DNA of 62,120 nucleotides. Source: a virus. The notes beneath the pieces are model-generated. The model did not search any database. It was not told the DNA's origin and saw only the letters and a program-made list of their open reading frames with translations. This document shows positions 3,314-59,523 of the stretch, in pieces. The position numbers and the translations under genes are program-made. The DNA is taken from positions 1-62,120 of the IMG/VR virus record IMGVR_UViG_3300021387_000156; one strand, 5' to 3'. How positions within the stretch are numbered: the first letter of the stretch is position 1; each line of letters starts with the position of its first letter.

Positions 3314-3495
3314 AGGTCGAATAAACTTGGCTGCAGTCGCTCCTGTTCAATTCTTTCACGCCTGGCTATCTCGGCATCAACTTTCTTCTCTGCCTCTTTG
3401 GCAAGACGCAGCTCTGTTGTGGACCTTGTGGCAAAGAACTGTGTTTGATGCTCTCTCATGTCCTTGACAAGCTGGGTAAATTCTTGCTCGTTCAT
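3310..3495 (-). CDS. hypothetical protein (61 aa)
   Basis: Internal ATG at 3495 forms an ATGA overlap with the stop of 3492..3728; the longer track start would overlap the upstream gene. Confidence 0.55.
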   Translation of the reverse strand: MNEQEFTQLVKDMREHQTQFFATRSTTELRLAKEAEKKVDAEIARRERIEQERLQPSLFDL

Positions 3496-3728
3496 GACTC
3501 GTCCTCCTCTGATTTGCGCTTGAACAAACGCTTCATGAATGAGACCAATAGATAAACAAAGGCATAGAGCCATGTGGCTAATGAAGCCAGTACAAAGAAC
3601 ATGATGACTGTCATGCGGACTTTCTCCAGTTGACGGTCTTCAACAAGATCGTCCCAAATGGACGCGGCCACGAAGGCGTTGATGAGAACGCCCACGGCAT
3701 AGATGATGAGGAATGTTGTAATGCTCAT
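3492..3728 (-). CDS. small membrane protein (2 predicted TM helices)
   Basis: Hydrophobic stretches ITTFLIIYAVGVLINAFVAA and VIMFFVLASLATWLYAFVYLLV. Confidence 0.6.
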   Translation of the reverse strand: MSITTFLIIYAVGVLINAFVAASIWDDLVEDRQLEKVRMTVIMFFVLASLATWLYAFVYLLVSFMKRLFKRKSEEDES

Positions 3729-3734
3729 ATCAGT

Positions 3735-3884
3735 TTAGTGATTATCCAGTAGATGAAATAAAATCAGTCCGGCCATGATGCCGGCGATCAGCAGCACGGC
3801 AAGGCAGCGGGCATGGGGTGCGTACTTCCCGAGGAAGTCCTGCTCTTGTGGTGTCTCGTCGTAGGTGTCAATTCGCTTTTCCAT
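3735..3884 (-). CDS. small membrane protein (49 aa)
   Basis: ATG at 3884 (the track start at 3932 is TTG); C-terminal hydrophobic helix CLAVLLIAGIMAGLILF. Confidence 0.45.
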   Translation of the reverse strand: MEKRIDTYDETPQEQDFLGKYAPHARCLAVLLIAGIMAGLILFHLLDNH

Positions 3885-4197
3885 CGCTATCGGGTTTGAC
3901 GGTTCGCAGTTCGTGAATAGTGGCGTCGGCAAGTTGACGTGCCTTGCGTGCCATCGCCGACACCGATGAGTTGAGTTTGCCGAGCACCACGCTACGGCGT
4001 TCCTGGGCGACGAGGTAGCGGGTCAACTCCCAGCGGCGTTGCTCCCACTTCTCCTCCTCGATTTCCTCTTTCGTCTTGATGGGGTAAATCTCCATGCTCG
4101 GTGAGTCAGCCACCTGCAAACTCTTCTCTCGGGCTGTCTCTTTCACACGCTCCACGGTCTCGGGACGCGGCTCGGTTTTCTTTTTCTTCAAAAACAT
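3868..4197 (-). CDS. hypothetical protein (109 aa)
   Basis: ATG at 4197, just downstream of the stop of 4208..4555; charged helical sequence. Confidence 0.5.
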   Translation of the reverse strand: MFLKKKKTEPRPETVERVKETAREKSLQVADSPSMEIYPIKTKEEIEEEKWEQRRWELTRYLVAQERRSVVLGKLNSSVSAMARKARQLADATIHELRTVKPDSDGKAN

Positions 4198-4207
4198 AGT
4201 TGTGCTG

Positions 4208-4555
4208 TTAGATGTTGTACTTGATGTATCGTTGCACCCTGAGGGCCAGTATGACTTCGTGTATGGACTCGGCCCTGCCCTCAAGGGAGTTGATTGTCTC
4301 GGTGATCTCTTCTGCGTTGGAGGCCACGAAATAGCCTTTGCTGTTCGATGCCAGGCAGGGGATGATGGCGTTGGTGCGGATGTGGTTCACGATGAGCCTG
4401 ATCTGTCGACGGTCACACACATGGCCATGCTTCCTCACCGCCGCGGCCAAAGCGTCGCTGGACACCACTCTGGTGCCAGACGACTGGAGGATACTGACAA
4501 CGAGAGGGACAAGTGTGCCCCTCTCGTAATCGTTGAGTCGCTCGCTCATGGTCAC
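4208..4555 (-). CDS. hypothetical protein (115 aa)
   Basis: Track ORF; 4-nt overlap with the stop of the upstream gene. Confidence 0.6.
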
Positions 4556-6555
4556 TCTATCTTTGTGCCGTCGGTCTTGTAGCCGAGGGCGGTTAGTTGC
4601 TCCTCTATCACTGCTTGTTTCTTCGCCAGTCGGGTGGTGCAGTCAGTGACCACTTGCTCAGATGCATCGCTTGCCCATTCCTTCAGCAGCATTCGTTGAC
4701 ACTCCTGTAGGTCGGTGTTGTATTCTACACCCGGAGTCGACAACGCATCTCGCAGGAAGTCCCGGCAGATGAGGTTCACCTCATCGGTGTGCTCTCTAAC
4801 ATAGTTCAGCACTTGCGGCTCTGCGCTGTAAGTGGAGTTGATTTTTAGTTTTTGTCTTAGTCCGTATGAGCACTGGCGCAGTATCAGCGTCATCAGCACC
4901 AGGCTCTCGGTGTTCGAGAGCGTCTCTGTCGGCAACTCTGTCGGCTCCATGTCTGCAAGAACGCTACGAAGTTTGGAGGCGATGCTGCTGACGTTCTTCC
5001 GCTCGTTCTCCTTGTACTCCTTGACCAGTTGCATGGCTTTTGCCTCATCGCCGTTCTCGGCGGCGACATTCTTTTTCCACTGGTAGTAGCGGACATCTAT
5101 TTCCGTGCCTCTGTAGCTTGTGCTGATTACCAGGCAGCGGTAAACCTCGTTGGCCTCCAGCTTGGCTTTCAGTCGCTCGTCATTTTCTCGGTAAGCCGAG
5201 AACCGCTCAAAGAGGTCATCGACCTCGGCGACCCTGAACCCCATGCCGGCAACCTTGTCAAGTAACGGCTGGAAATCCTCGCACCTATCCATGTAGTAAC
5301 TGGTGCACTCTTTCAGTACGATTGTCTTTCCCGCCTCAAGGTCTTCACCCTCCTTGACGAGGACATCGGCGTTGTCGGTTATCATCTGCAAGAGCCATGA
5401 GGCACGTTTGTTGTTCCACCGCTCTCGGTTGGTGCAGGTGGCATCGTGAGGCTTCATTTCGTAGAACAGACACCCAACGTTGGCGTCGTTGAATGGACAT
5501 TTCTCGCAAGTGCTGCCGCATGAGCCGGAGAAGTCGCGCTCCCAAATGGCGTTCTCAATGCGCATGAACAGGTCATTGGTGTAATCTATGGCATCCTGCT
5601 TGGTGATTGGATCGTTCTCCTGAACAGCTGTATCCTCCATGTATTCGAAGAACTGCTGTTGCTCGTCCTCGGTGAGCTTGCAGACGTGCATCGCCGCACC
5701 GATGGACATCCACTCTTTGGTGACCCATTGCTTGAGTTCGGGCAAAAGGTTGTCGAGTTTGATGCGTTCCTGGATAAACCGCTTGGACTTGCCGAAGCGC
5801 AAGGCGATTTCCTCAATGCTCTTTCCTGTCTTGACGAGCTGTCCGAAAGCGAAAGCCTCCTCAATCGGGTCAACGTCCTTGCGCTGGAGGTTCTCGGTTA
5901 TCATCGCGTCCAGTGCTTCCTCATCAGTCATCACCCTCACGATGCAGGGGATTGTATCTTCTTCAAGCATTGATACGGCACGGTAACGGCGTTCGCCGCA
6001 TACAATCTCAAATTCACCACCCAGAGGGTTGGTATCGTCCGCTTCAATGGGACGCACGGTAATTGGTTGGAGCAAGCCTTGCTGTTTGATGTTGTTGGAA
6101 AGGTCTTGCAGGTCTCCCTCATCGATAGTTTTTCTTGGATTGAGGGGGCTGGTGTGTATTCTTACCAGCGGAATGTTCTTTACTTCCATTGTTTTTGGCG
6201 AATTAAAATGTTTGACTTGTGGTGCTGATTGTTCAACACTTGATGTTGAGGACTGGTCCTCAGTGATACCCCGCTTGACGAGTTTCTTGGTCAGCTTGGG
6301 GTCTTCCAGTTGGTCGCACATGGCGACGCGCTTGCCTGCACGGACAAGTTTCGGCAGGTAGTTGTTAAGCGAATGGTGAGGGAAACCGGCCATCTTGGTG
6401 TTTCCCTTTTTCGTGAGAGTAATGCCAAGCTCTTTGGCGACGATTTCCGCATCTTCCTCATAGGACTCATAGAAGTCACCCACTCGGAAGAGCAGAACCG
6501 TGTCGGGATGCTTGGCTTTCATCTGCTCGAACTGCTTTTTTAATTTTTGGTTCAT
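4552..6555 (-). CDS. MutS domain I (mismatch-binding) fused to a ParB/Srx-like N-terminal domain, plus a Cys-rich C-terminal region
   Basis: The N-terminus ([71 protein letters not shown]) follows E. coli MutS residues ~15-115, including GDFYE. Then ParB-type LQPITVRP...[11 protein letters not shown]...ITENLQR. ATG at 6555 follows the leader cassette. Confidence 0.7.
6200..6218 (-). promoter_or_regulatory. Leader-motif copy inside the MutS-I/ParB ORF, 10 nt upstream of in-frame ATG 6189 (MEVKNIPL..., start of the ParB domain)
   Basis: Minus strand reads AAGTCAAACATTTTAATTC then GCCAAAAACA then ATG, the same arrangement as at bona fide gene starts. Confidence 0.5.
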
Positions 6556-47986: not shown

Positions 47987-48574
47987 TTATACGTCCTTTT
48001 GCAGGTTGTAATCACCCTTGCCAACGATTGCCAGCGCGGCGGTGGTGGCATGGAGAATGCACTTGAAATTCACTTTGAGCGGATACTTGTCGAGACGGCG
48101 GCAGCATACGTGGACACCCAGGCGGTTGTCGGTGTAGAGGTAAATCATCTTTTTCCATACACCCCAACGTCGGTTGTCCTTGACCACAACTTCATCGCCG
48201 TGGTGGATTTGCATGCCCTTGCTTTTCGTGCCGTAAACCTTGAATTGCTCCCAAAAGTACTTGAAGTTGAATTGGTCGGTCATCTCGACTTCCTCCTCAA
48301 GGTCATCATCGTCGTAGTAGATGACAACATCGTCAATATCGTAAAGTTCACTGGCCTCAAAATGGTGGCCTTCCTCCACCCCGAATTCGTGGCTGAAACT
48401 GTCATCAACATATTCGAGTTCAAAGGTGGCGTTCAAGGATACAGAGAACTTGCCAATCTCAATCTCCATCTCGCAGGTGGTGTCGTCCTCATCCTCGGGT
48501 TCAAACCCGTAGCCCATAATCTCGTTGTAGAGTTGCTCGTAGAAGTCAGCCGGAAATTTGATGCTCGTTTTCAT
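47987..48574 (-). CDS. highly acidic hypothetical protein (195 aa), moron between terL and portal
   Basis: N-terminal half is rich in D/E (EPEDEDDTTCEMEIE...YDIDDVVIYYDDDDLEEEVEM); has its own early-type cassette. Confidence 0.55.
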   Translation of the reverse strand: MKTSIKFPADFYEQLYNEIMGYGFEPEDEDDTTCEMEIEIGKFSVSLNATFELEYVDDSFSHEFGVEEGHHFEASELYDIDDVVIYYDDDDLEEEVEMTDQFNFKYFWEQFKVYGTKSKGMQIHHGDEVVVKDNRRWGVWKKMIYLYTDNRLGVHVCCRRLDKYPLKVNFKCILHATTAALAIVGKGDYNLQKDV

Positions 48575-48690
48575 ATTGCAGATGAATTAAATGTTTGACT
48601 TATAGTGTTTTAATTTATATATGCAAAGATAATACCAAAAGAACAAAGTCGGTTCATTTTCTCGCCGTTTTTTAACGCCTTAACCTTTGC
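48575..48690 (-). promoter_or_regulatory. Early-type promoter/leader cassette, copy i (inside the late region)
   Basis: Minus strand reads GTTAAAAAACGGCGAGAAAATGAACCG, TATCTTTG (48631-48624), AAGTCAAACATTTAATTC (48601-48584), then ATG at 48574. Confidence 0.6.
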
Positions 48691-48714
48691 TAACTCATTG
48701 AAAATCATCCGTGC

Positions 48715-51696
48715 TTACACACCACGAATGATGATGCGAGCCAAACCCGAAAGCACCGCCGAGGCTGCCATTTGCTCTGCCGGCGACTGTTCGTTGTAGT
48801 CAAGCACGTCGCCCATGAACGCGGCATACTCAGGCTCACTCATCTTCTCGGGGTCGAGGTGGACATGGGCACGCACCCAGTCGCTCATCGCCGAGATACG
48901 CACGCGGTGGTCGCTGCCGAGTTTCAGCACATTCACCTGTGGCAGGTCCTTGCGCAGGTCGCGCACCATCGGGAAGTAGGCTTGCTGGCACTCCACGACA
49001 TACATCGTGGCGGTGAACGAGCGTATCCACCCCGCCATTTCGTCGTTGCCCTTTACAGGACGCAGGCGCACATCGGTGAGGTGCCATCGGTCGGCGATGC
49101 GTGCGAGACGTGCCAGGGCGAAACGGCCACCGAACGACGGCAGCACATACACGATTGCCTGCTCGTAGTCGTACTCGGTGGCAGGGTTAAAGAACTTGAA
49201 CTCGCCCTCGCTGTAGATTGACCGCTTGCGCCCCATGCTGAACTCCGTGTACTGGGCACGCAACAAGTCGTGCACGGCGTAACGCAGCGTATCGCTGCAG
49301 TTATGAACTAACACTCCATCAGCAAAGAATTCGGCATCATCCACCGAGATATCATACACATCTGCTTTGCCAGCTATGCTTGCAGGCACATGACCGGCTA
49401 CAACACTTCTGTTTAGAGTAATGATTGACAGTAAATTTAGTGCCACATACTGGACAAATACGTTCTTCATTGTCGAAACCCTGCTGTCTGCGCCACTTTG
49501 ATTTGCAATTATTCCCGCAGAACTTGCCACCTTGTATTGCACGGCTTTGAAACTCTTTGCCACAACAAATACAGGTGTAAGTTTTGAACTTACGCTTCTC
49601 CATTTGCTTTTTAGCGTTTTGAGAATGCCACTCAGACCCTTCTTGTGATGCGTGCCAAGCTGCGGCCTTTTCTCTGTTGTCATTAAGTGTCTTCGTGCGA
49701 AATTCCTTAATCTCGTCCGAAGCGTTCTCACTATGCAAAGACTCATGTTCGTGAGCCAACAACAGAGCAAGGTTGCTGATTGTATTGTTATCGACATCCC
49801 CATCAATGTGGTGAACATGATAACCTTTAGGAATTTCTCCACGCTCGACAATCCAAATGTAGCGGTGGAGTGTGATTTTTCTCCATTCGCCATTAACCTC
49901 AGCCCAGCCTTTAAAGTATCTCCTATCGCTCTCACATTTTGCTTGAGGATAGCGATGGAACTTGTAACCGTTGTACGTTGCAGTTTCTCGTTGCATTGTT
50001 TTCCGTTTTTAATTGTTACTATTTCGTCTCCCACTTTCAACTGATAAGCAGGGATAAAACCTCGACTCGTATATATCGGGTGGTCGTATGTACAACGCAG
50101 TGTTTTATCACACAAAGTTACGAAAAAATATCGAGTATTCCTACTGGTACACAAGGAATTATATACCTCTGAAAACCCAAATCTTGTTAAAACTTTGTCC
50201 CCGATTTTAACGTTCATTATAGGCACTAAGCCATTGTCAGTAATCACCATTGTATCACCAGCAAAACAATGACCATGTGCCTCGTACTTCTGCTTAGTGA
50301 TAGGGTTAGTCACTTTCTGCTTGGCGATTGCTCCATTCTCGTCCTTCTGCACGGCTTGGTAGTCGTCAATAGACGTGGTGCAGTCGTTGTCTATGCGGAT
50401 AGCCACACCCGGCACACGACCATCCCACACGGCATTGATGAACTCGCCAGTAGTTGCCACGGCAGGGTTCTTGTTTCCGATACAGTCCTCCACTTCAAAG
50501 CCCTCATGCTCCAATTCGTCAATCACGAGGTCGAAGAACGAGCGGTTGTTCTCATCAATGGTGTTCGCCGCCTTGCCTGACGCGTCGCCATGCAGATAGA
50601 CCTTGCCAGTGTAGTTGTATTCCCGAAGTTTCGCGGCTATCACCTTTGCGGCCTTGCGTGCCGAGTTGTTCGGGCTCTCTATCGGCAGCTCATCAAACTG
50701 CGTAACTTGCTGAACATCGTCGGGCTTATACTCTTTTTGGAAGAACGTGGCGGTGACATACGGCAGCACGTTGGAGTCCATGCTGATGTGAATGGGCAAC
50801 TCGGGGTTGAAAGGGAACTTGCCGCACACCACACCACGGTTGAACGAGGGGAAGAACTCCGCACCTGTGCGGATGTGTCCCCATTCGCCAAGTGCATAGA
50901 CCTGGAAATAGTCGGGGTCGTTCACCCTGTCTCTCTCGAAGTTGGCGATAGCCTGGTAATCGTAGTAGCCGTACTTCCCATCAGGGCTGCCCACTACCCA
51001 AAAGTTGTTCAAGTAGGTTGAATGGATGATGACGGTGTCGGGGGCGTGTTCCTCGAACTCTCCCGTGCGGTGGTTGAGTATCATTTTCGGGGAGTTCATC
51101 AGCACGGCCTTCACCCTGCACAACTCAGGCGGCAGCTTCTCGCCGCCGATGGTCAGTTCCATGGGCACCTCATGCCATTCCTCAAGATCAAACCAGTGCT
51201 TCTTGATCCAGTGCTCCTCGCTGATGGGGTTGAAGGCGGCAAGTATCTGCTGGCCTTCCATACCACGGAGACGGAGGCGTATCTGCTTGAGGTCGCTTTC
51301 CTCGTACTCGGACAACTCGTCGAGGAAGACACGCTTGTACTGGGAAATACCCTTGATTTTCTCGCTGTCGTCAAGACCGGTGAAGTCAATCTTCGCCCCA
51401 TTGTCGAACACGATGGAGTTCTGCTTGAAGCGGCAGTGCTCGGCCAGGCCTTCGATGCCGTTGATGGCGGTCTTGAAGTCGGTGTAGATGGTCTTCTCGA
51501 TTGATGCGCCCACCTTTCGCATGACGAGGTGGTTTGAGCACTCCCAATAGGTGAGTATCGACAGGAACTGGGCCACCGAGTAGGACTTCGACGACGACGA
51601 GCCACCCATGAGCACGATGTTACGCACGCTCGGGTCGAGTGTGTAACGCCATACCCAAAAGGCATTCGGTGAAAACAGTTCTCTTTCGATGATCAT
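48715..51696 (-). CDS. terL: terminase large subunit interrupted by an intein
   Basis: Walker A-like LMGGSSSSKSYS. Nuclease-domain motif split as ...YEAHGH | intein | CSDTLRYAVHDL. A single 993-codon open frame. Confidence 0.85.
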   Translation of the reverse strand: MIIERELFSPNAFWVWRYTLDPSVRNIVLMGGSSSSKSYSVAQFLSILTYWECSNHLVMRKVGASIEKTIYTDFKTAINGIEGLAEHCRFKQNSIVFDNGAKIDFTGLDDSEKIKGISQYKRVFLDELSEYEESDLKQIRLRLRGMEGQQILAAFNPISEEHWIKKHWFDLEEWHEVPMELTIGGEKLPPELCRVKAVLMNSPKMILNHRTGEFEEHAPDTVIIHSTYLNNFWVVGSPDGKYGYYDYQAIANFERDRVNDPDYFQVYALGEWGHIRTGAEFFPSFNRGVVCGKFPFNPELPIHISMDSNVLPYVTATFFQKEYKPDDVQQVTQFDELPIESPNNSARKAAKVIAAKLREYNYTGKVYLHGDASGKAANTIDENNRSFFDLVIDELEHEGFEVEDCIGNKNPAVATTGEFINAVWDGRVPGVAIRIDNDCTTSIDDYQAVQKDENGAIAKQKVTNPITKQKYEAHGHCFAGDTMVITDNGLVPIMNVKIGDKVLTRFGFSEVYNSLCTSRNTRYFFVTLCDKTLRCTYDHPIYTSRGFIPAYQLKVGDEIVTIKNGKQCNEKLQRTTVTSSIAILKQNVRAIGDTLKAGLRLMANGEKSHSTATFGLSSVEKFLKVIMFTTLMGMSITIQSATLLCCWLTNMSLCIVRTLRTRLRNFARRHLMTTEKRPQLGTHHKKGLSGILKTLKSKWRSVSSKLTPVFVVAKSFKAVQYKVASSAGIIANQSGADSRVSTMKNVFVQYVALNLLSIITLNRSVVAGHVPASIAGKADVYDISVDDAEFFADGVLVHNCSDTLRYAVHDLLRAQYTEFSMGRKRSIYSEGEFKFFNPATEYDYEQAIVYVLPSFGGRFALARLARIADRWHLTDVRLRPVKGNDEMAGWIRSFTATMYVVECQQAYFPMVRDLRKDLPQVNVLKLGSDHRVRISAMSDWVRAHVHLDPEKMSEPEYAAFMGDVLDYNEQSPAEQMAASAVLSGLARIIIRGV
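49300..50268 (-). mobile_element. Hint-type intein (323 codons) in terL
   Basis: N-terminal CFAGDTMV (block A) and CTYDHPIYT (block B); C-terminal VYDISVDDAEFFADGVLVHN followed by Cys+1 (blocks F/G). Confidence 0.8.
49352..49996 (-). CDS. HNH homing endonuclease encoded inside the intein in a different reading frame from terL
   Basis: LHRYIWIVERGEIPKGYHVHHIDGDVDNNTISNLALLLAHEHESLH (HNH), plus CICCG..CGNNC and CPVCG..CCSRSC zinc-finger pairs. (51696-49996) mod 3 = 2. Confidence 0.8.
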   Translation of the reverse strand: MQRETATYNGYKFHRYPQAKCESDRRYFKGWAEVNGEWRKITLHRYIWIVERGEIPKGYHVHHIDGDVDNNTISNLALLLAHEHESLHSENASDEIKEFRTKTLNDNREKAAAWHASQEGSEWHSQNAKKQMEKRKFKTYTCICCGKEFQSRAIQGGKFCGNNCKSKWRRQQGFDNEERICPVCGTKFTVNHYSKQKCCSRSCACKHSWQSRCV

Positions 51697-52217
51697 CAGT
51701 CTTTCTTCTTTGGAGCGAGCAATAACTCTCCTTTTCCTGTCAAATTTACCGTTGTCGGAGCTTCCCAGCCATTCATTTTGGCCAGCAGTGCAGCCGCCTC
51801 GGTTTTGCCATTAAACTCGTAGGTTATCTCGCCGAACTTGTTCTTGATTTTCTTGAGAGCCTTACGCACCCGTGTCGGCATCTGATTGGGCGATTTGAGC
51901 CTGACTTTGCCAGTTTCCTCGTCAACATAATACATCTCGGCTGGGTCAAGGTCAACGATGCCCATTAGCACCTCTTCAACCCTTTTCCTGTCAACTTTTG
52001 TTTCCTCGGCACGCTTGGCCATAAGTTCCTCGACCCTATGGGCGACCTTTGGGTTTGCGAGCAGCTTACAGGCGCAGTCCCAGACGGTGCTCTGCTTCAT
52101 GTTGGCACAGTTGTATGAAAGGCGATAGGCCTCACTTGCGTTGCCTATATCAACGTAATGCTGGCAGAACATCTCTTGTTTTGGTGTCAGTCTGTCTTTG
52201 TTGTTGTCTTGTGCCAT
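51696..52217 (-). CDS. terS: terminase small subunit (Terminase_2-like)
   Basis: LTPKQEMFCQHYVDIGNASEAYRLSY...ACKLLANPKVAHRVEEL; stop overlaps the terL start. Confidence 0.8.
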   Translation of the reverse strand: MAQDNNKDRLTPKQEMFCQHYVDIGNASEAYRLSYNCANMKQSTVWDCACKLLANPKVAHRVEELMAKRAEETKVDRKRVEEVLMGIVDLDPAEMYYVDEETGKVRLKSPNQMPTRVRKALKKIKNKFGEITYEFNGKTEAAALLAKMNGWEAPTTVNLTGKGELLLAPKKKD

Positions 52218-56918: not shown

Positions 56919-57695
56919 CTAAAAGTTAAACAAACTCATTTGCTTGACTGCTGGTTGTTCGACAGGCTTTATGGCATCAACTTCTTGAGCCGGCTCGACC
57001 TGTTGTTTCGCTTTACTTCGCACAGCAAGTTCATTTCGGCGGTGCCAATATTCTTCTTCAGAGATTTTCCTGATACTGCAACACGGCGTGGGAATGGGCC
57101 ACTTAATCTCATTGACTTCGTATGCCCCGAGGAAGTCCTGCATCAATGCGTCGTGATGAACAACCTGGCCAAGCATTCCGTGTATCATGAAATTAAGAGC
57201 GCACATTTTCACGCAGATAGGGTCAAGATCTTCGGCATAGTAATAATAAAACTTTGTCTTGTCGCTCTTCATGAAGTGAGCAAGCAAGGTTCGTCCGCTA
57301 CCACATGCACAGTCATTGACGGTTTTCATTTCGGGTGAGTAGGTAAGTTCCGCCATCACTTGACACAGCTCCAACGGAGTGAAAAACTGCCCCATTGCAG
57401 ATGACTTAAACTTGCCTTTGACAGCTTCCTCATACATCGTGCCGAAGAAGTCATAGGCACCATTCTTGTTGATGCCATGTGTAGCAAGTTTCAACCACCT
57501 AACGAGCAATTCAAACATATCGGGATTGTCCTGCTTTCGTTCAGCCAACAATGCAGGGTAGTTACACTTGTGACGCATTACCCTGTCTATGTCGAATGTC
57601 TCGATGAAAAAGTCCAGCATCTCCTCAAAGGCGATGGAAAAGTCCTTGCCGGTCTTGTAAGCGTATGCGCCCAATTTATCTATAGCCAGTTTCAT
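56919..57695 (-). CDS. truncated N6-adenine methylase (HsdM-like) SAM-binding domain lacking the (N/D)PP(F/Y) catalytic motif
   Basis: GQFFTPLELCQVMAEL, NDCACGSGRTLL (motif I), YYAEDLD and CALNFMIHGM are present. No NPPF/NPPY anywhere in the remaining 75 aa. ATG at 57695 shares one nt with the recombinase stop. Confidence 0.55.
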   Translation of the reverse strand: MKLAIDKLGAYAYKTGKDFSIAFEEMLDFFIETFDIDRVMRHKCNYPALLAERKQDNPDMFELLVRWLKLATHGINKNGAYDFFGTMYEEAVKGKFKSSAMGQFFTPLELCQVMAELTYSPEMKTVNDCACGSGRTLLAHFMKSDKTKFYYYYAEDLDPICVKMCALNFMIHGMLGQVVHHDALMQDFLGAYEVNEIKWPIPTPCCSIRKISEEEYWHRRNELAVRSKAKQQVEPAQEVDAIKPVEQPAVKQMSLFNF

Positions 57696-58822
57696 CACCA
57701 GTCCACATTTTTGTTAAACATTCGCTTCTGTTCTTCTTGACTTCGCTTGATGTAAATCATGGTCGTGTCAAGTCCGCTATGACCTAACAGGTCGGCAAGT
57801 TCTGTCACGTCCTTAGTCTTGCTCCGCTTGAGGTACATCTTGGCAAAGAAATGTCGAAACGCATGAGGATGACACTTTTTGGCGTCAACTCCAGCACGGT
57901 TGGCCATGGTGTGTAATAGTTGGGCGACACCACGAGTTGAGCACAACCCACCAGTTCTGTTGACGGCAATGGTTCCTTGCAATTTATTCCTTTCGGCATA
58001 TTCGGCACACTCCTGCTGTACTTTCGCAGAGAAGAAAAATCGTCTCACCTTGCTTCCTTTGCCCTTGAGATCCACATGACCGTCGGCCACCATCTCGTAG
58101 GTGAACATCACAAACTCGTGGACTCGTGCCCCTGTGGTAGAGAGAAGTCTTATCCAAATGTAGGCCTTCTCATTGTGAGCCTTGCAATAGGCAAGTAATT
58201 TTTCAACCTCTTTCTCTGTAGGCACGTTTTCAAGGCTCAATGTACGAGGTATCTTCGTATGCTTGATTTCTATGTGCTTGCCGAGATATTTTGCAAGTGC
58301 CGCGACAGCGTTGAGTCTGTTATTGACTGTTCTGGGCAATTTCCCTTGCTCTTCCATGGCAGCCTTATAGCCTTTTGCAACCTCGGTGGTAATTGAGGTT
58401 GAATAGCATAGGAAATCTTTTGCCCCAGATATATAGCCTCTCACCGTGTTCTGGCTGTATGCGTTCTCTTTGACAAGCCATTCCGAAAAGCCGTTCAAAA
58501 TCTGCTGAGCCTTTTCGTCAAGCCTTGACCGCTTCTCTAACGCCTTCGCCCGCACTCGCTTTTTAACTCCACCTATTTGCACTCCACACCATGAGAGGAA
58601 GTCGCCGATGGCTTTTTGCTGCTTTTGACTTAGGTGAAACTCGGCGGCGTGAGATTTGCGATACTTGGTATATCCCCGCTTGCTCACCTCATCGACTTCG
58701 GTCAGGAAGTCATAGACATATCCGAGGTGATGGTCGGGAGAACCGGCACCTTTGGCGGTAACATGTGCCGTATATGAGCAAAACAATTCTTGCTTATCGG
58801 GTGATAATTTAGTCCTCTTCAT
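57695..58822 (-). CDS. tyrosine recombinase (XerC/D-like), third in the genome
   Basis: TGARVHE (Arg), HPHAFRHFFA (HxxR), LLGHSG and TMIYIKRS (Tyr). Confidence 0.75.
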   Translation of the reverse strand: MKRTKLSPDKQELFCSYTAHVTAKGAGSPDHHLGYVYDFLTEVDEVSKRGYTKYRKSHAAEFHLSQKQQKAIGDFLSWCGVQIGGVKKRVRAKALEKRSRLDEKAQQILNGFSEWLVKENAYSQNTVRGYISGAKDFLCYSTSITTEVAKGYKAAMEEQGKLPRTVNNRLNAVAALAKYLGKHIEIKHTKIPRTLSLENVPTEKEVEKLLAYCKAHNEKAYIWIRLLSTTGARVHEFVMFTYEMVADGHVDLKGKGSKVRRFFFSAKVQQECAEYAERNKLQGTIAVNRTGGLCSTRGVAQLLHTMANRAGVDAKKCHPHAFRHFFAKMYLKRSKTKDVTELADLLGHSGLDTTMIYIKRSQEEQKRMFNKNVDW

Positions 58823-59523
58823 TTTCCTACACGTTTAACAAGCCTCGTCAATGGCTGCAGCCCCCAGCGGAGGCGAACCTTGTCAGCTCGGATTCTTGCG
58901 TTCCTGCTTTCCTGTATCTTTGCCCTGCACGCAGCCTTGCGTTCTTCTGGCAAAGCATCATAGTTTTTTCGCAGTTGGGCACCGCGGCTTATGATGTACA
59001 GGTTGTCCAAATCACAGTTGGTGGTGTCTTTGTCCTTGAACATGACACACCATCCTTTAGGTATCGGGCCGTGAGCCTGTTCCCAGACAAAGCGATGTTT
59101 TGGTACCATTCGCTTACCGTTTGATGGTTTTATCCACCAGTATGACCGCCCTTTTTCTGTTCTGAGGCATTCATAGCCGGGCTTGCGGTTTTGCGGATTG
59201 TCTTGACGGCACTCGCCTTTACGGAAGCGTGTGCGTGATGAGTTGGCGACGCCCTCAGCGGTCATGTACGTCTCTTGTTTGCGTCCGGCATTGAACGGCT
59301 TATGACCCTTTCGGAACTGACCGACCTTACTACGCTCTGCCTTAAATTCCTTTGACTTGCGCAAGCCGAGGACAAAGGCTTTCATTTGCACGCTGCGAGG
59401 TGAGTGGTGAACCCATTCTGCTATGTCTGCACAGGTTCTTGTTGCATAGTGCTTGATGAGGTATTCAACCTCCCACTGCGTCCATCGCTTCACTTTTGGT
59501 GGTATTGGTATCATCTGTTTCAT
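58819..59523 (-). CDS. HNH-like (degenerate) DNA-binding protein with an N-terminal Myb/SANT-like HTH
   Basis: WTQWEVEYLIKHY...; KHRFVWEQAHGPIPKGWCVMFKDKDTTNCDLDNLYIIS resembles the HNH_3 core, but the first His positions are substituted. Confidence 0.45.
   Translation of the reverse strand: MKQMIPIPPKVKRWTQWEVEYLIKHYATRTCADIAEWVHHSPRSVQMKAFVLGLRKSKEFKAERSKVGQFRKGHKPFNAGRKQETYMTAEGVANSSRTRFRKGECRQDNPQNRKPGYECLRTEKGRSYWWIKPSNGKRMVPKHRFVWEQAHGPIPKGWCVMFKDKDTTNCDLDNLYIISRGAQLRKNYDALPEERKAACRAKIQESRNARIRADKVRLRWGLQPLTRLVKRVGK

Follow-up and report, generated by a model that had tools for sequence, protein, structure and literature searches.

A homing-endonuclease-like HNH_3 gene nested out of frame in a predicted phage terminase intein, with nested, fractured and free-standing relatives

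We analysed a 62,120-nucleotide (nt) stretch of viral DNA, positions 1 to 62,120 of the IMG/VR record IMGVR_UViG_3300021387_000156 (hereafter the window), whose large terminase gene, terL, carries an intein-like insertion with a second open reading frame (ORF), for an HNH nuclease, overlapping it in another frame. The phage is taken to be temperate and probably infects Bacteroidales of the gut or rumen. The terL precursor gene (48715..51696, minus strand) is one ORF of 993 codons that runs through N-extein, intein and C-extein; its window translation has one stop, at the ORF end, and it matches Pfam Terminase_3 at 8.8e-32. Alignment with intein-less alleles of 670 amino acids (aa) places the N-extein (TerL residues 1-476, ending ...YEAHGH) at 50269..51696, minus, and assigns the difference of 993 - 670 = 323 codons (969 nt, residues 477-799) to the intein at 49300..50268, minus. 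The intein opens with CFAGDTMV, has CTYDHPIYT as block B and ends in VYDISVDDAEFFADGVLVHN, followed by Cys+1. Its N-terminal Hint blocks, with Cys1 and the T-Y-D-H of block B, occupy 49987..50268 (minus), a terL-frame linker of about 205 stop-free codons overprinted on the HNH gene occupies 49372..49986 (minus), and the C-terminal blocks F/G (VYDISVDD...VLVHN) lie at 49300..49371 (minus). The +1 codon, TGC for Cys (49297..49299, minus), is GTG for Val in the intein-less alleles; it opens the C-extein (194 codons plus stop; 48715..49299, minus), whose first residues, CSDTLRYAV, are probably the last conserved nuclease-domain motif.

Several searches bear on the nature of this insertion. Above their Pfam cut-offs, Hint_2 (30.4 bits; cut-off 28.4) and PT-HINT (28.8; cut-off 27.7) match the N-terminal blocks, and hidden Markov models (HMMs) built from seed alignments match the N-terminal blocks at 2.6e-41 and the C-terminal blocks at 1.5e-17. 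Cys1 (C477), the TxxH of block B, the terminal His-Asn and Cys+1 are invariant across 22 relatives. The guanine-plus-cytosine content falls to 36-45% over the insert, compared with 55-62% in its surroundings. The locus thus has the features by which inteins are recognised: an in-frame insertion without counterpart in collinear homologues, blocks A, B and F/G, and a +1 nucleophile. What it lacks is the hallmark of the canonical bifunctional intein, an endonuclease in frame with the splicing domain. The linker (216 residues searched) matched no Pfam family even at E<=1, and in an AlphaFold2 (AF2) model of the terL-frame intein it has a predicted local distance difference test score (pLDDT) of 25-40. 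Because the alignment behind it was shallow this model is poor, and it serves only to contrast the linker with the HNH protein, not as evidence for a Hint fold.

The HNH_3 ORF, a predicted homing-endonuclease gene, comprises 214 codons plus a stop (49352..49996, minus) at offset +2, that is, in the -1 frame, relative to terL. Its ATG (49996-49994) stands 12 nt past a TAA of its own frame, and it ends directly before the C-terminal Hint block. The predicted protein begins MQRETATYNGYK (Met-Gln-Arg-Glu start) and contains an HNH catalytic core at residues 43-83 (...HVHHIDGDVDNN...H...H; 49748..49870, minus), the stretch matched by Pfam, and two CxxC...C...C zinc-ribbon modules at residues 142-203 (49388..49573, minus), which are presumed to bind DNA. 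HNH_3 (PF13392) is the only Pfam family that the shifted ORF matches (6.8e-13, 48.5 bits, cut-off 24.8). Among 35 HNH sequences, H62, H63, N71, N75, H84 and H88 are invariant, as are C142, C145, C160, C164, C181, C184 and C199, and C203 is nearly so. The AF2 model of the HNH protein reached a pLDDT of 93.2; its top match in the PDB was the homing endonuclease I-HmuI (1U3E; Foldseek probability 1.0, E = 1.9e-3), followed by I-PpoI and then weakly by zinc ribbons of the YacG type. Close homologues numbered 69 (125-328 aa), and an exhaustive profile search returned homologues in 1,367 clusters at 50% identity (E<=1e-30). Among the best 150 matches of that search, all but one of 165-408 aa, no in-frame intein or TerL fusion was found.

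An earlier reading of the same DNA from its sequence alone (the sequence-only reading) had described a 993-codon terL with Hint blocks at residues 477-799, a shifted 214-codon ORF with an HNH core and two zinc-finger pairs, an ATG in A-rich context after the N-terminal Hint blocks, and a linker resembling no recognised domain. All of its coordinates and motifs were re-derived here, and the profile searches and invariant His, Asn and Cys residues bear out its domain assignments. The alignment with intein-less terL that it had proposed as a check gave a clean absence of 323 aa in the 670-aa alleles. Its interpretation is likewise supported in each of three elements: a predicted splicing Hint intein, an HNH encoded separately in the -1 frame, and selection that holds the terL frame open.

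A megablast search with terL found no near-identical terL DNA in GenBank phages, so relatives were sought at the protein level. By tblastn, an HNH ORF was found inside terL of Acinetobacter phage Highwayman, Tetrasphaera phage TJE1 and Clostridium phage phiCDHM19; each of their annotated terL genes spans the insert, with the HNH ORF at offset +2. With a 35-protein HNH alignment (A1) we then collected loci from IMG/VR viral contigs and from one genome per GTDB species. The 165 loci that were classified, the window included, come from cultured phages, viral contigs, and bacterial and archaeal genomes. HNH is nested within terL at offset +2 in 109 and at offset +1 in 2 (L047 and L057), terL is fractured, with split intein halves around the HNH gene, in 38, and HNH is free-standing in 16. 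In nearly all nested loci the N-terminal Hint blocks lie directly upstream of HNH, and C-terminal blocks ending HN|C (or S/T in place of C) lie directly downstream, usually followed at once by the terminase motif D-A-L-R-Y. The window locus thus belongs to a large family and is not the only case of its kind.

This family is deeply diverged. HNH identity among nested loci ranges from 23 to 70%, and since its median is 38% and its minimum 23%, the nested loci amount to effectively independent trials. Hosts named in the records include Bacteroidota, Actinomycetota, Bacillota, Chloroflexota, Pseudomonadota, Acidobacteriota, Omnitrophota, Chlamydiota and the candidate phyla radiation (CPR) among bacteria, and Thermoplasmatales, Methanomethylophilaceae, Thorarchaeota and Woesearchaeota among archaea. 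The HNH family spans at least 10 bacterial phyla as well as archaea. The nearest relatives of the window are metagenome-assembled genomes (MAGs) of Prevotellaceae and Sodaliphilus. In the two loci nested at offset +1, both IMG/VR contigs, the host frame is free of stops and HNH is shortened to 169-171 aa; their existence implies that the relative frame changed at least once. One locus, L154, was examined as a case of in-frame HNH and rejected: it is rearranged, an unrelated upstream ORF runs into HNH, and the C-terminal Hint blocks are in another frame.

Selection on the two frames could be read from stop codons. In the frame two bases upstream of the HNH frame, the loci nested at +2 contain no stop in 19,987 codons, compared with 265 in 6,830 codons of the fractured loci (3.88 per 100) and 113 in 2,903 codons of the free-standing loci (3.89 per 100). 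Had the nested loci followed the non-nested rate of 3.9 per 100 codons, they should contain about 780 stops. In the remaining alternative frame, stops number 9-12 per 100 codons overall. The near-universal choice of +2 is explained by its being, among the non-nested homologues, the only alternative frame with few stops (3.9 per 100 codons, compared with 11-12 in the other). As selection keeps the frame stop-free, terL must be translated through the whole insert. The sequence-only reading was right that an open run of this length points to selection, whereas its estimate for the chance of such a run, 1e-4 to 1e-5, was too extreme: for the window by itself, synonymous resampling of the HNH ORF gave a probability of 0.002-0.006 that the terL frame is open, or 0.048 with the ORF's own, already biased codons. 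The evidence that decides is the stop count across the family.

Substitutions separate the roles of the two frames. Three metagenomic relatives (L085-L087) with about 76% DNA identity to the window keep both frames open across about 150 substitutions. Their differences from the window at HNH codon positions 1/2/3 number 51/27/74 in L085 and L086 and 45/34/76 in L087, the signature of coding in the HNH frame; read in the terL frame, it is the second codon position that changes most. Translated, the window and these relatives are 72% identical in the HNH frame and 58% in the terL frame. Across 35 intein-bearing terL relatives the linker has the lowest mean identity (65%), against 85% for the N-terminal Hint blocks, 89% for the C-terminal blocks and 74-83% for the exteins. 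These divergence patterns show the HNH frame evolving as a protein under purifying selection and the terL-frame linker evolving as an unconstrained spacer without protein-level conservation. Together with structure prediction, they show that the HNH-frame product is a conserved protein and that the linker is a spacer that needs only to avoid stops.

The fractured loci present the same parts in a broken arrangement, unlike the window, where terL is one uninterrupted ORF. In these 38 loci the upstream terL ORF closes as soon as the N-terminal Hint blocks are complete, about 50-150 nt separate it from the HNH gene, and a short ORF with the C-terminal Hint blocks and the last terL motif begins near the HNH stop. 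The frame of the C-half differs from that of the N-half in 22 of the 34 complete cases. Such loci, present in cultured phages as well as in prophages of Staphylococcus, Leuconostoc and Aerococcus, imply natural split inteins and probable trans-splicing of the terminase. A cultured example is Lactobacillus phage CL2 (L004, KR905067.1, 455-2771), in which the annotated terL stops after the N-terminal Hint blocks and the HNH gene comes next; an unannotated C-half ORF (2487-2771) overlaps the 3' end of HNH and the start of the portal gene, and nothing is annotated at 2591-2733. Fractured terL genes also occur in L016, L019, L020, L025, L029, L099, L119, L121 and others.

No Hint half was found at the 16 free-standing loci, where HNH mostly lies just downstream of an intact, intein-less terL. 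Whereas 33 of the 38 fractured loci fall into one cluster at 50% identity, nested loci are far more diverse. Nearest-neighbour relations and this clustering, rather than a rooted tree, hint that the nested state may be older than the fractured one. The earlier proposal of a mini-intein invaded by, or co-evolved with, a free-standing nuclease gene fits the existence of free-standing and split-intein HNH homologues. In the closest relative from the genome collection, L089 (Prevotellaceae MAG RUG548, 3424-4782; HNH 73% identical), an interruption breaks the terL frame shortly before the N-terminal Hint blocks end; the locus could be a pseudogene, it could be about to fracture, or the assembly could be wrong there.

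Alleles with and without the intein coexist among close relatives of the window. A protein search with TerL returned proteins of about 993 aa in 35 clusters, alongside many others of exactly 670 aa, some of the latter 99% identical to the window over the exteins; the intein-less alleles read ...YEAHGH|VSDTLRY where the window reads ...YEAHGH[intein]CSDTLRY. At the DNA level, an intein-less contig (L169) aligned by blastn is exactly 969 nt shorter, with 96% identity over 6.3 kilobases (kb) upstream and 93% over 4.2 kb downstream; 1390 of the 1428 nt of the N-extein are identical. Its empty site reads ...GAGGCACACGGCCAT|GTGAGCGACACGCTG..., and it differs from the window at the junction by GTG versus TGC and by silent changes at -4, -7, +9 and +24. 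These silent differences, which cluster within 10 nt of the junction, might confer resistance to cleavage.

Segments of the intein also have mixed ancestry. Several relatives have N-terminal Hint blocks 96-99% identical to those of the window and exteins only 72-85% identical. In another mosaic intein (P0071, on contig L171), roughly 120 C-terminal residues are identical to the window and the N-terminal part is about 76% identical, which points to probable recombination inside the intein/HNH region. Upstream of its terminase genes, L171 carries a separate HNH gene of the I-HmuI/NUMOD type and an integrase. The indel, junction and mosaic patterns are those expected of an element that is still moving and recombining. 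Presence/absence polymorphism, clustered flank differences and mosaic Hint segments would, indirectly, be consistent with site-specific cleavage and super-Mendelian inheritance.

We also examined where in the terminase the element sits. When Highwayman and L008 TerL were spliced in silico, each gave a complete match to Terminase_3C, the RNase H-like nuclease domain (profile positions 1-154 of 155), with the splice junction in its last motif, ...H.IDA|CRYA.... The window TerL is too diverged for the Terminase_3C Pfam model, and a search of PDB sequences with spliced TerL (P0105) found no match. The site assignment in the window therefore rests on the spliced relatives and on motif similarity, by which ...HGH|(V/C)SDTLRY is probably the same terminase motif. 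The claim that the intein splits a nuclease-domain motif thus holds directly for these relatives and by inference for the window, where the expected spliced junction would read ...QKYEAHGH-CSDTLRYAVHDLLR. Other members sit elsewhere in terL, so the element has switched insertion sites. In L159 (a Clostridium sp. MAG) the host ORF of 1134 aa is a terL with two inteins: the one with the nested HNH lies at the ATPase Walker-B region (...SSIYGFS|C...HN|CSFVDELDE) rather than in the nuclease motif, and the second lies further downstream. In L082 the intein occupies a different site, near the start of the nuclease domain.

The likely mode of translation of the nuclease can be judged from the start region of the 109 loci nested at +2. 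An ATG opens the conserved HNH N-terminus in 103. In the HNH frame, the distance from the start back to the preceding stop has a median of 12 nt and is at most 15 nt in 62 loci, and Shine-Dalgarno-like tetramers occur at -17..-4 in 51% of loci compared with 17% at control positions. A canonical slippery heptamer falls inside the only permissible interval in just 5. Given these counts, independent internal initiation is supported and frameshifting is not. In 11 of the 109 loci, compared with 0.9% in controls, exactly 6 nt separate the HNH start from the end of an extended -10-like element (TGnTAnAnT, often TGATATAAT); the loci with this element (22 nt upstream of the HNH start) are L010, L030, L031, L033, L044, L052, L060, L067, L082, L106 and L152. 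It would fit a leaderless HNH transcript, is partly forced by a conserved Gly-Asp-Ile of the Hint frame, and is missing in the window.

We propose that a mobile class-1 intein occupies the final nuclease-domain motif of a phage large terminase, and that its homing endonuclease is a separate gene nested in the intein DNA in the -1 frame rather than a domain of the intein polypeptide. We assign this reading as a whole a probability of roughly 0.85. That the protein splices is suggested by the essential nature of the host gene, by the conservation of the blocks and by an insertion point within an active-site motif. The precursor would splice in cis through an acyl shift at Cys1, attack by Cys+1 and cyclisation of the terminal Asn, yielding a 670-aa TerL and discarding the Hint domain with its spacer of roughly 205 residues. 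Ribosomes would start independently at the internal ATG (49996) and produce a 214-aa, I-HmuI-like HNH nuclease with two zinc ribbons. This nuclease would cut or nick intein-less terL near ...CATGGTCAT|GTGAGCGAC... in a co-resident phage or prophage, and recombinational repair would copy intein and nuclease together while co-converting the flanks, including the change from Val to Cys at +1.

A number of observations weigh against this proposal. The Pfam model Intein_splicing scores 21.3 bits on terL, under its cut-off of 35.8; the AF2 model of the terL-frame intein, from a 22-sequence alignment, has a mean pLDDT of 42 and leaves the C-terminal blocks undocked; and the template-modelling (TM) scores of the HNH model in Foldseek are low (0.22-0.26). 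The ATG in the window is preceded by an A-rich leader without a Shine-Dalgarno motif, although such a leader is plausible for a Bacteroidales host, and sigma-70-like promoter sites in the window occur at chance level only. Intein-less alleles encode Val (GTG) at +1, so that homing must carry the +1 Cys codon along by co-conversion. Free-standing homologues adjoin terL, which is also the place of packaging-accessory HNH proteins, and may have a role other than homing. Finally, splicing, separate translation of HNH, cleavage specificity and homing are all predicted from sequence.

We weighed this proposal of a cis-splicing intein with a nested nuclease gene against other explanations of the locus. 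Before any comparison, the simplest expectation was an ordinary in-frame HNH intein masked by two compensating indels of sequencing or assembly, given that in-frame HNH_3 inteins exist, for example in the dCTP deaminase of cyanophage CL131 (PMC6293099); the sequence-only reading had named such indels as what would overturn it. Offset +2 recurs, however, in 109 independent and deeply diverged loci from different laboratories, platforms and phyla, cultured phages among them, and this excludes an artefact for practical purposes. The relatives that keep both frames open, the ATG and closely preceding stop of the HNH ORF, and the failure to find a long in-frame homologue among the 69 close homologues or the best 150 profile matches argue the same way. 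We give equally negligible weight to the idea that the insert is an HNH-encoding intron of group I or II. Phage group I introns often contain HNH ORFs, but here terL stays open throughout, the boundaries are marked by Hint blocks and HN|C, and no Rfam family, hence no intron ribozyme, matched at E<=1 over 48500-51900. Programmed -1 frameshifting out of the terL frame, giving a fusion of the TerL N-terminus, N-terminal Hint blocks and HNH without independent initiation, would suit the -1 position of the HNH frame and the ATT AAA AAC just upstream of the ATG in the window. It is nonetheless extremely unlikely, since the upstream stop leaves almost no space for a shift site, X_XXY_YYZ heptamers are scarce in the permitted interval, and the ATG and a threefold enrichment of Shine-Dalgarno-like tetramers point to initiation instead.

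The remaining alternatives concern function. If the linker were itself a functional domain, the overlap would be truly dual-function, and a frame kept open over deep evolutionary time is what one would then see. Against this stand the lack of any Pfam match at E<=1, the low pLDDT, and its place as the fastest-evolving segment of the gene, with changes mostly at its second codon position; moreover, the 38 fractured loci, at least one of them (CL2) a cultured isolate, are full of stops in the linker frame, and we regard such a domain as very unlikely. It is improbable, to a lesser degree, that the nested HNH is a decaying relic in an intein that still splices, is inherited vertically and has lost homing. 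Homing-cycle theory expects nuclease decay after fixation, and truncated HNH ORFs of 169-186 aa do occur in some family members. In the clade of the window, by contrast, the ORF is full length, retains all catalytic and zinc residues and evolves under purifying selection; phages of 93-99% identity include both intein-plus and intein-less alleles, and Hint segments are mosaic across diverged exteins. Also unlikely, if a shade less so, is a terminase-associated packaging nuclease of the HK97 gp74 type, acting instead of or beside homing. Free-standing homologues lie almost always directly downstream of terL, and HNH proteins adjoining terminase genes are established packaging factors (PMC3592412). 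On the other side, the predicted protein is an I-HmuI-like HNH_3 with apparent zinc-ribbon DNA-binding modules, closely related phages with a 670-aa terL have no HNH gene adjoining it, and adjacency to the target gene is equally typical of free-standing homing endonuclease genes.

Out-of-frame nucleases within inteins have already been published for other nuclease types (bioRxiv 10.1101/2025.01.02.630785; 10.64898/2026.09.14.751524). The inteins of Gosselin et al. 2025 resemble that of the window in being contiguous Hint inteins, often in terL, with a same-strand nuclease ORF in another frame between the splicing blocks and an unstructured in-frame linker; the same origin, invasion by a free-standing nuclease gene, was proposed for them. 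We re-derived the nuclease offset of their Keitabear intein as +2 ("frame 3" there), as in the window. The nucleases themselves differ: that of Keitabear is Endonuclease_7 (PF02945, IPR004211) of about 130 aa, whereas the window encodes a 214-aa PF13392 HNH_3 protein with two zinc ribbons. We considered assigning the window HNH to the Keitabear-type, Endonuclease VII-like family and rejected this, as BLASTP gave no significant similarity and the window ORF matches only HNH_3. Where that study reports HNH inteins, the nuclease is in frame and belongs to the small classical HNH type. Gosselin et al. 2025 call the design rare and limited to actinophages, in contrast to the 109 nested loci described here, from a family that spans at least 10 bacterial phyla and archaea. 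A cyanobacterial dnaX intein (Phillips et al., bioRxiv 10.64898/2026.09.14.751524) likewise holds an overlapping nuclease in another frame, with purifying selection on the nuclease frame, relaxation of the extein-frame overlap, and coexisting intein-plus and intein-less alleles. Unlike the window, it has a LAGLIDADG nuclease and no HNH, in a cellular host gene rather than a phage terminase. For this dnaX intein and its out-of-frame LAGLIDADG, Gorbalenya 1998 is the earlier source cited.

Other systems share individual features. The fractured genes of Dassa et al. 2009 (PMC2677866) have the same order of N-terminal Hint blocks, nuclease gene and C-terminal Hint blocks, in a broken host gene, whereas the window has an unbroken frame, one ORF and predicted cis-splicing. 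Their nucleases are GIY-YIG and Vsr-like; it was noted there that HNH "could" fracture genes, with none reported together with inteins. The CL131 dCTP deaminase intein (PMC6293099), like the window, combines a Hint splicing domain and an HNH_3 nuclease in a phage gene, but its HNH_3 is part of the intein polypeptide and not a predicted separate product in another frame. The actively spreading ShiLan-type insertions in phage methylases (Arsenault et al. 2025, PMC11855218) also carry an alternative-frame HNH ORF and leave the host frame open. Lacking Hint blocks, they are thought to be retained in the protein, in contrast to the window, where canonical splicing blocks flank the nuclease. I-HmuI of Bacillus phage SPO1 (PDB 1U3E) shares Pfam HNH_3 with the window HNH at 14% identity; it is intron-encoded and uses NUMOD and helix-turn-helix DNA-binding modules where the window HNH has two zinc ribbons. 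In full-text searches of literature accessible without subscription, we found neither an out-of-frame HNH_3 in a terL intein nor a terL fractured by HNH.

Two further features of the window lie outside terL. A second HNH_3-like ORF of 234 aa (58819-59523, minus) matches the family HMM at 6.5e-15; other residues stand in place of the catalytic His-His (...GWCVMFKDKD...), making it probably inactive, and it abuts an ORF (57695-58822, minus) resembling a tyrosine recombinase/integrase. Between terL and the portal gene lies a conserved ORF of 195 aa (47987-48574, minus), whose counterparts in L169 (8154-8741) and L171 (6113-6703) have no Pfam match.

The design principle of this locus is thus already known, if only very recently; the HNH_3 nuclease family, its breadth and age, and the coexistence of split and free forms appear to be new. 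On balance, and with considerable reserve, we favour the broader view that these loci form an apparently undescribed, ancient bacterial and archaeal family in which an HNH_3/zinc-ribbon gene and a terL intein occur in three interconvertible states: free-standing, split-intein and -1-nested. The nested state would then be no fleeting intermediate but the commonest and most diverse form, held stop-free by selection. If this is true, the family offers a natural, experimentally accessible series, with CL2, TJE1, Highwayman and phiCDHM19 as cultured members, on how inteins gain nucleases and how split inteins arise. Because the three states share a terminase site, two long-debated routes, "splicing domain first, nuclease later" on the one hand and "contiguous to split intein" on the other, would become directly testable. 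In genome annotations, gene callers give terL or HNH, never both, and miss the C-half of fractured terL. The fractured members are candidate new natural split inteins of possible use in biotechnology. The nested loci also provide a clean, statistically overwhelming case in phages of a long-kept overlapping frame, in which the overprinted frame is selected only against stops. They take the recently reported "non-canonical intein" design, so far a rare curiosity of actinophages, into a widespread family that uses another nuclease.

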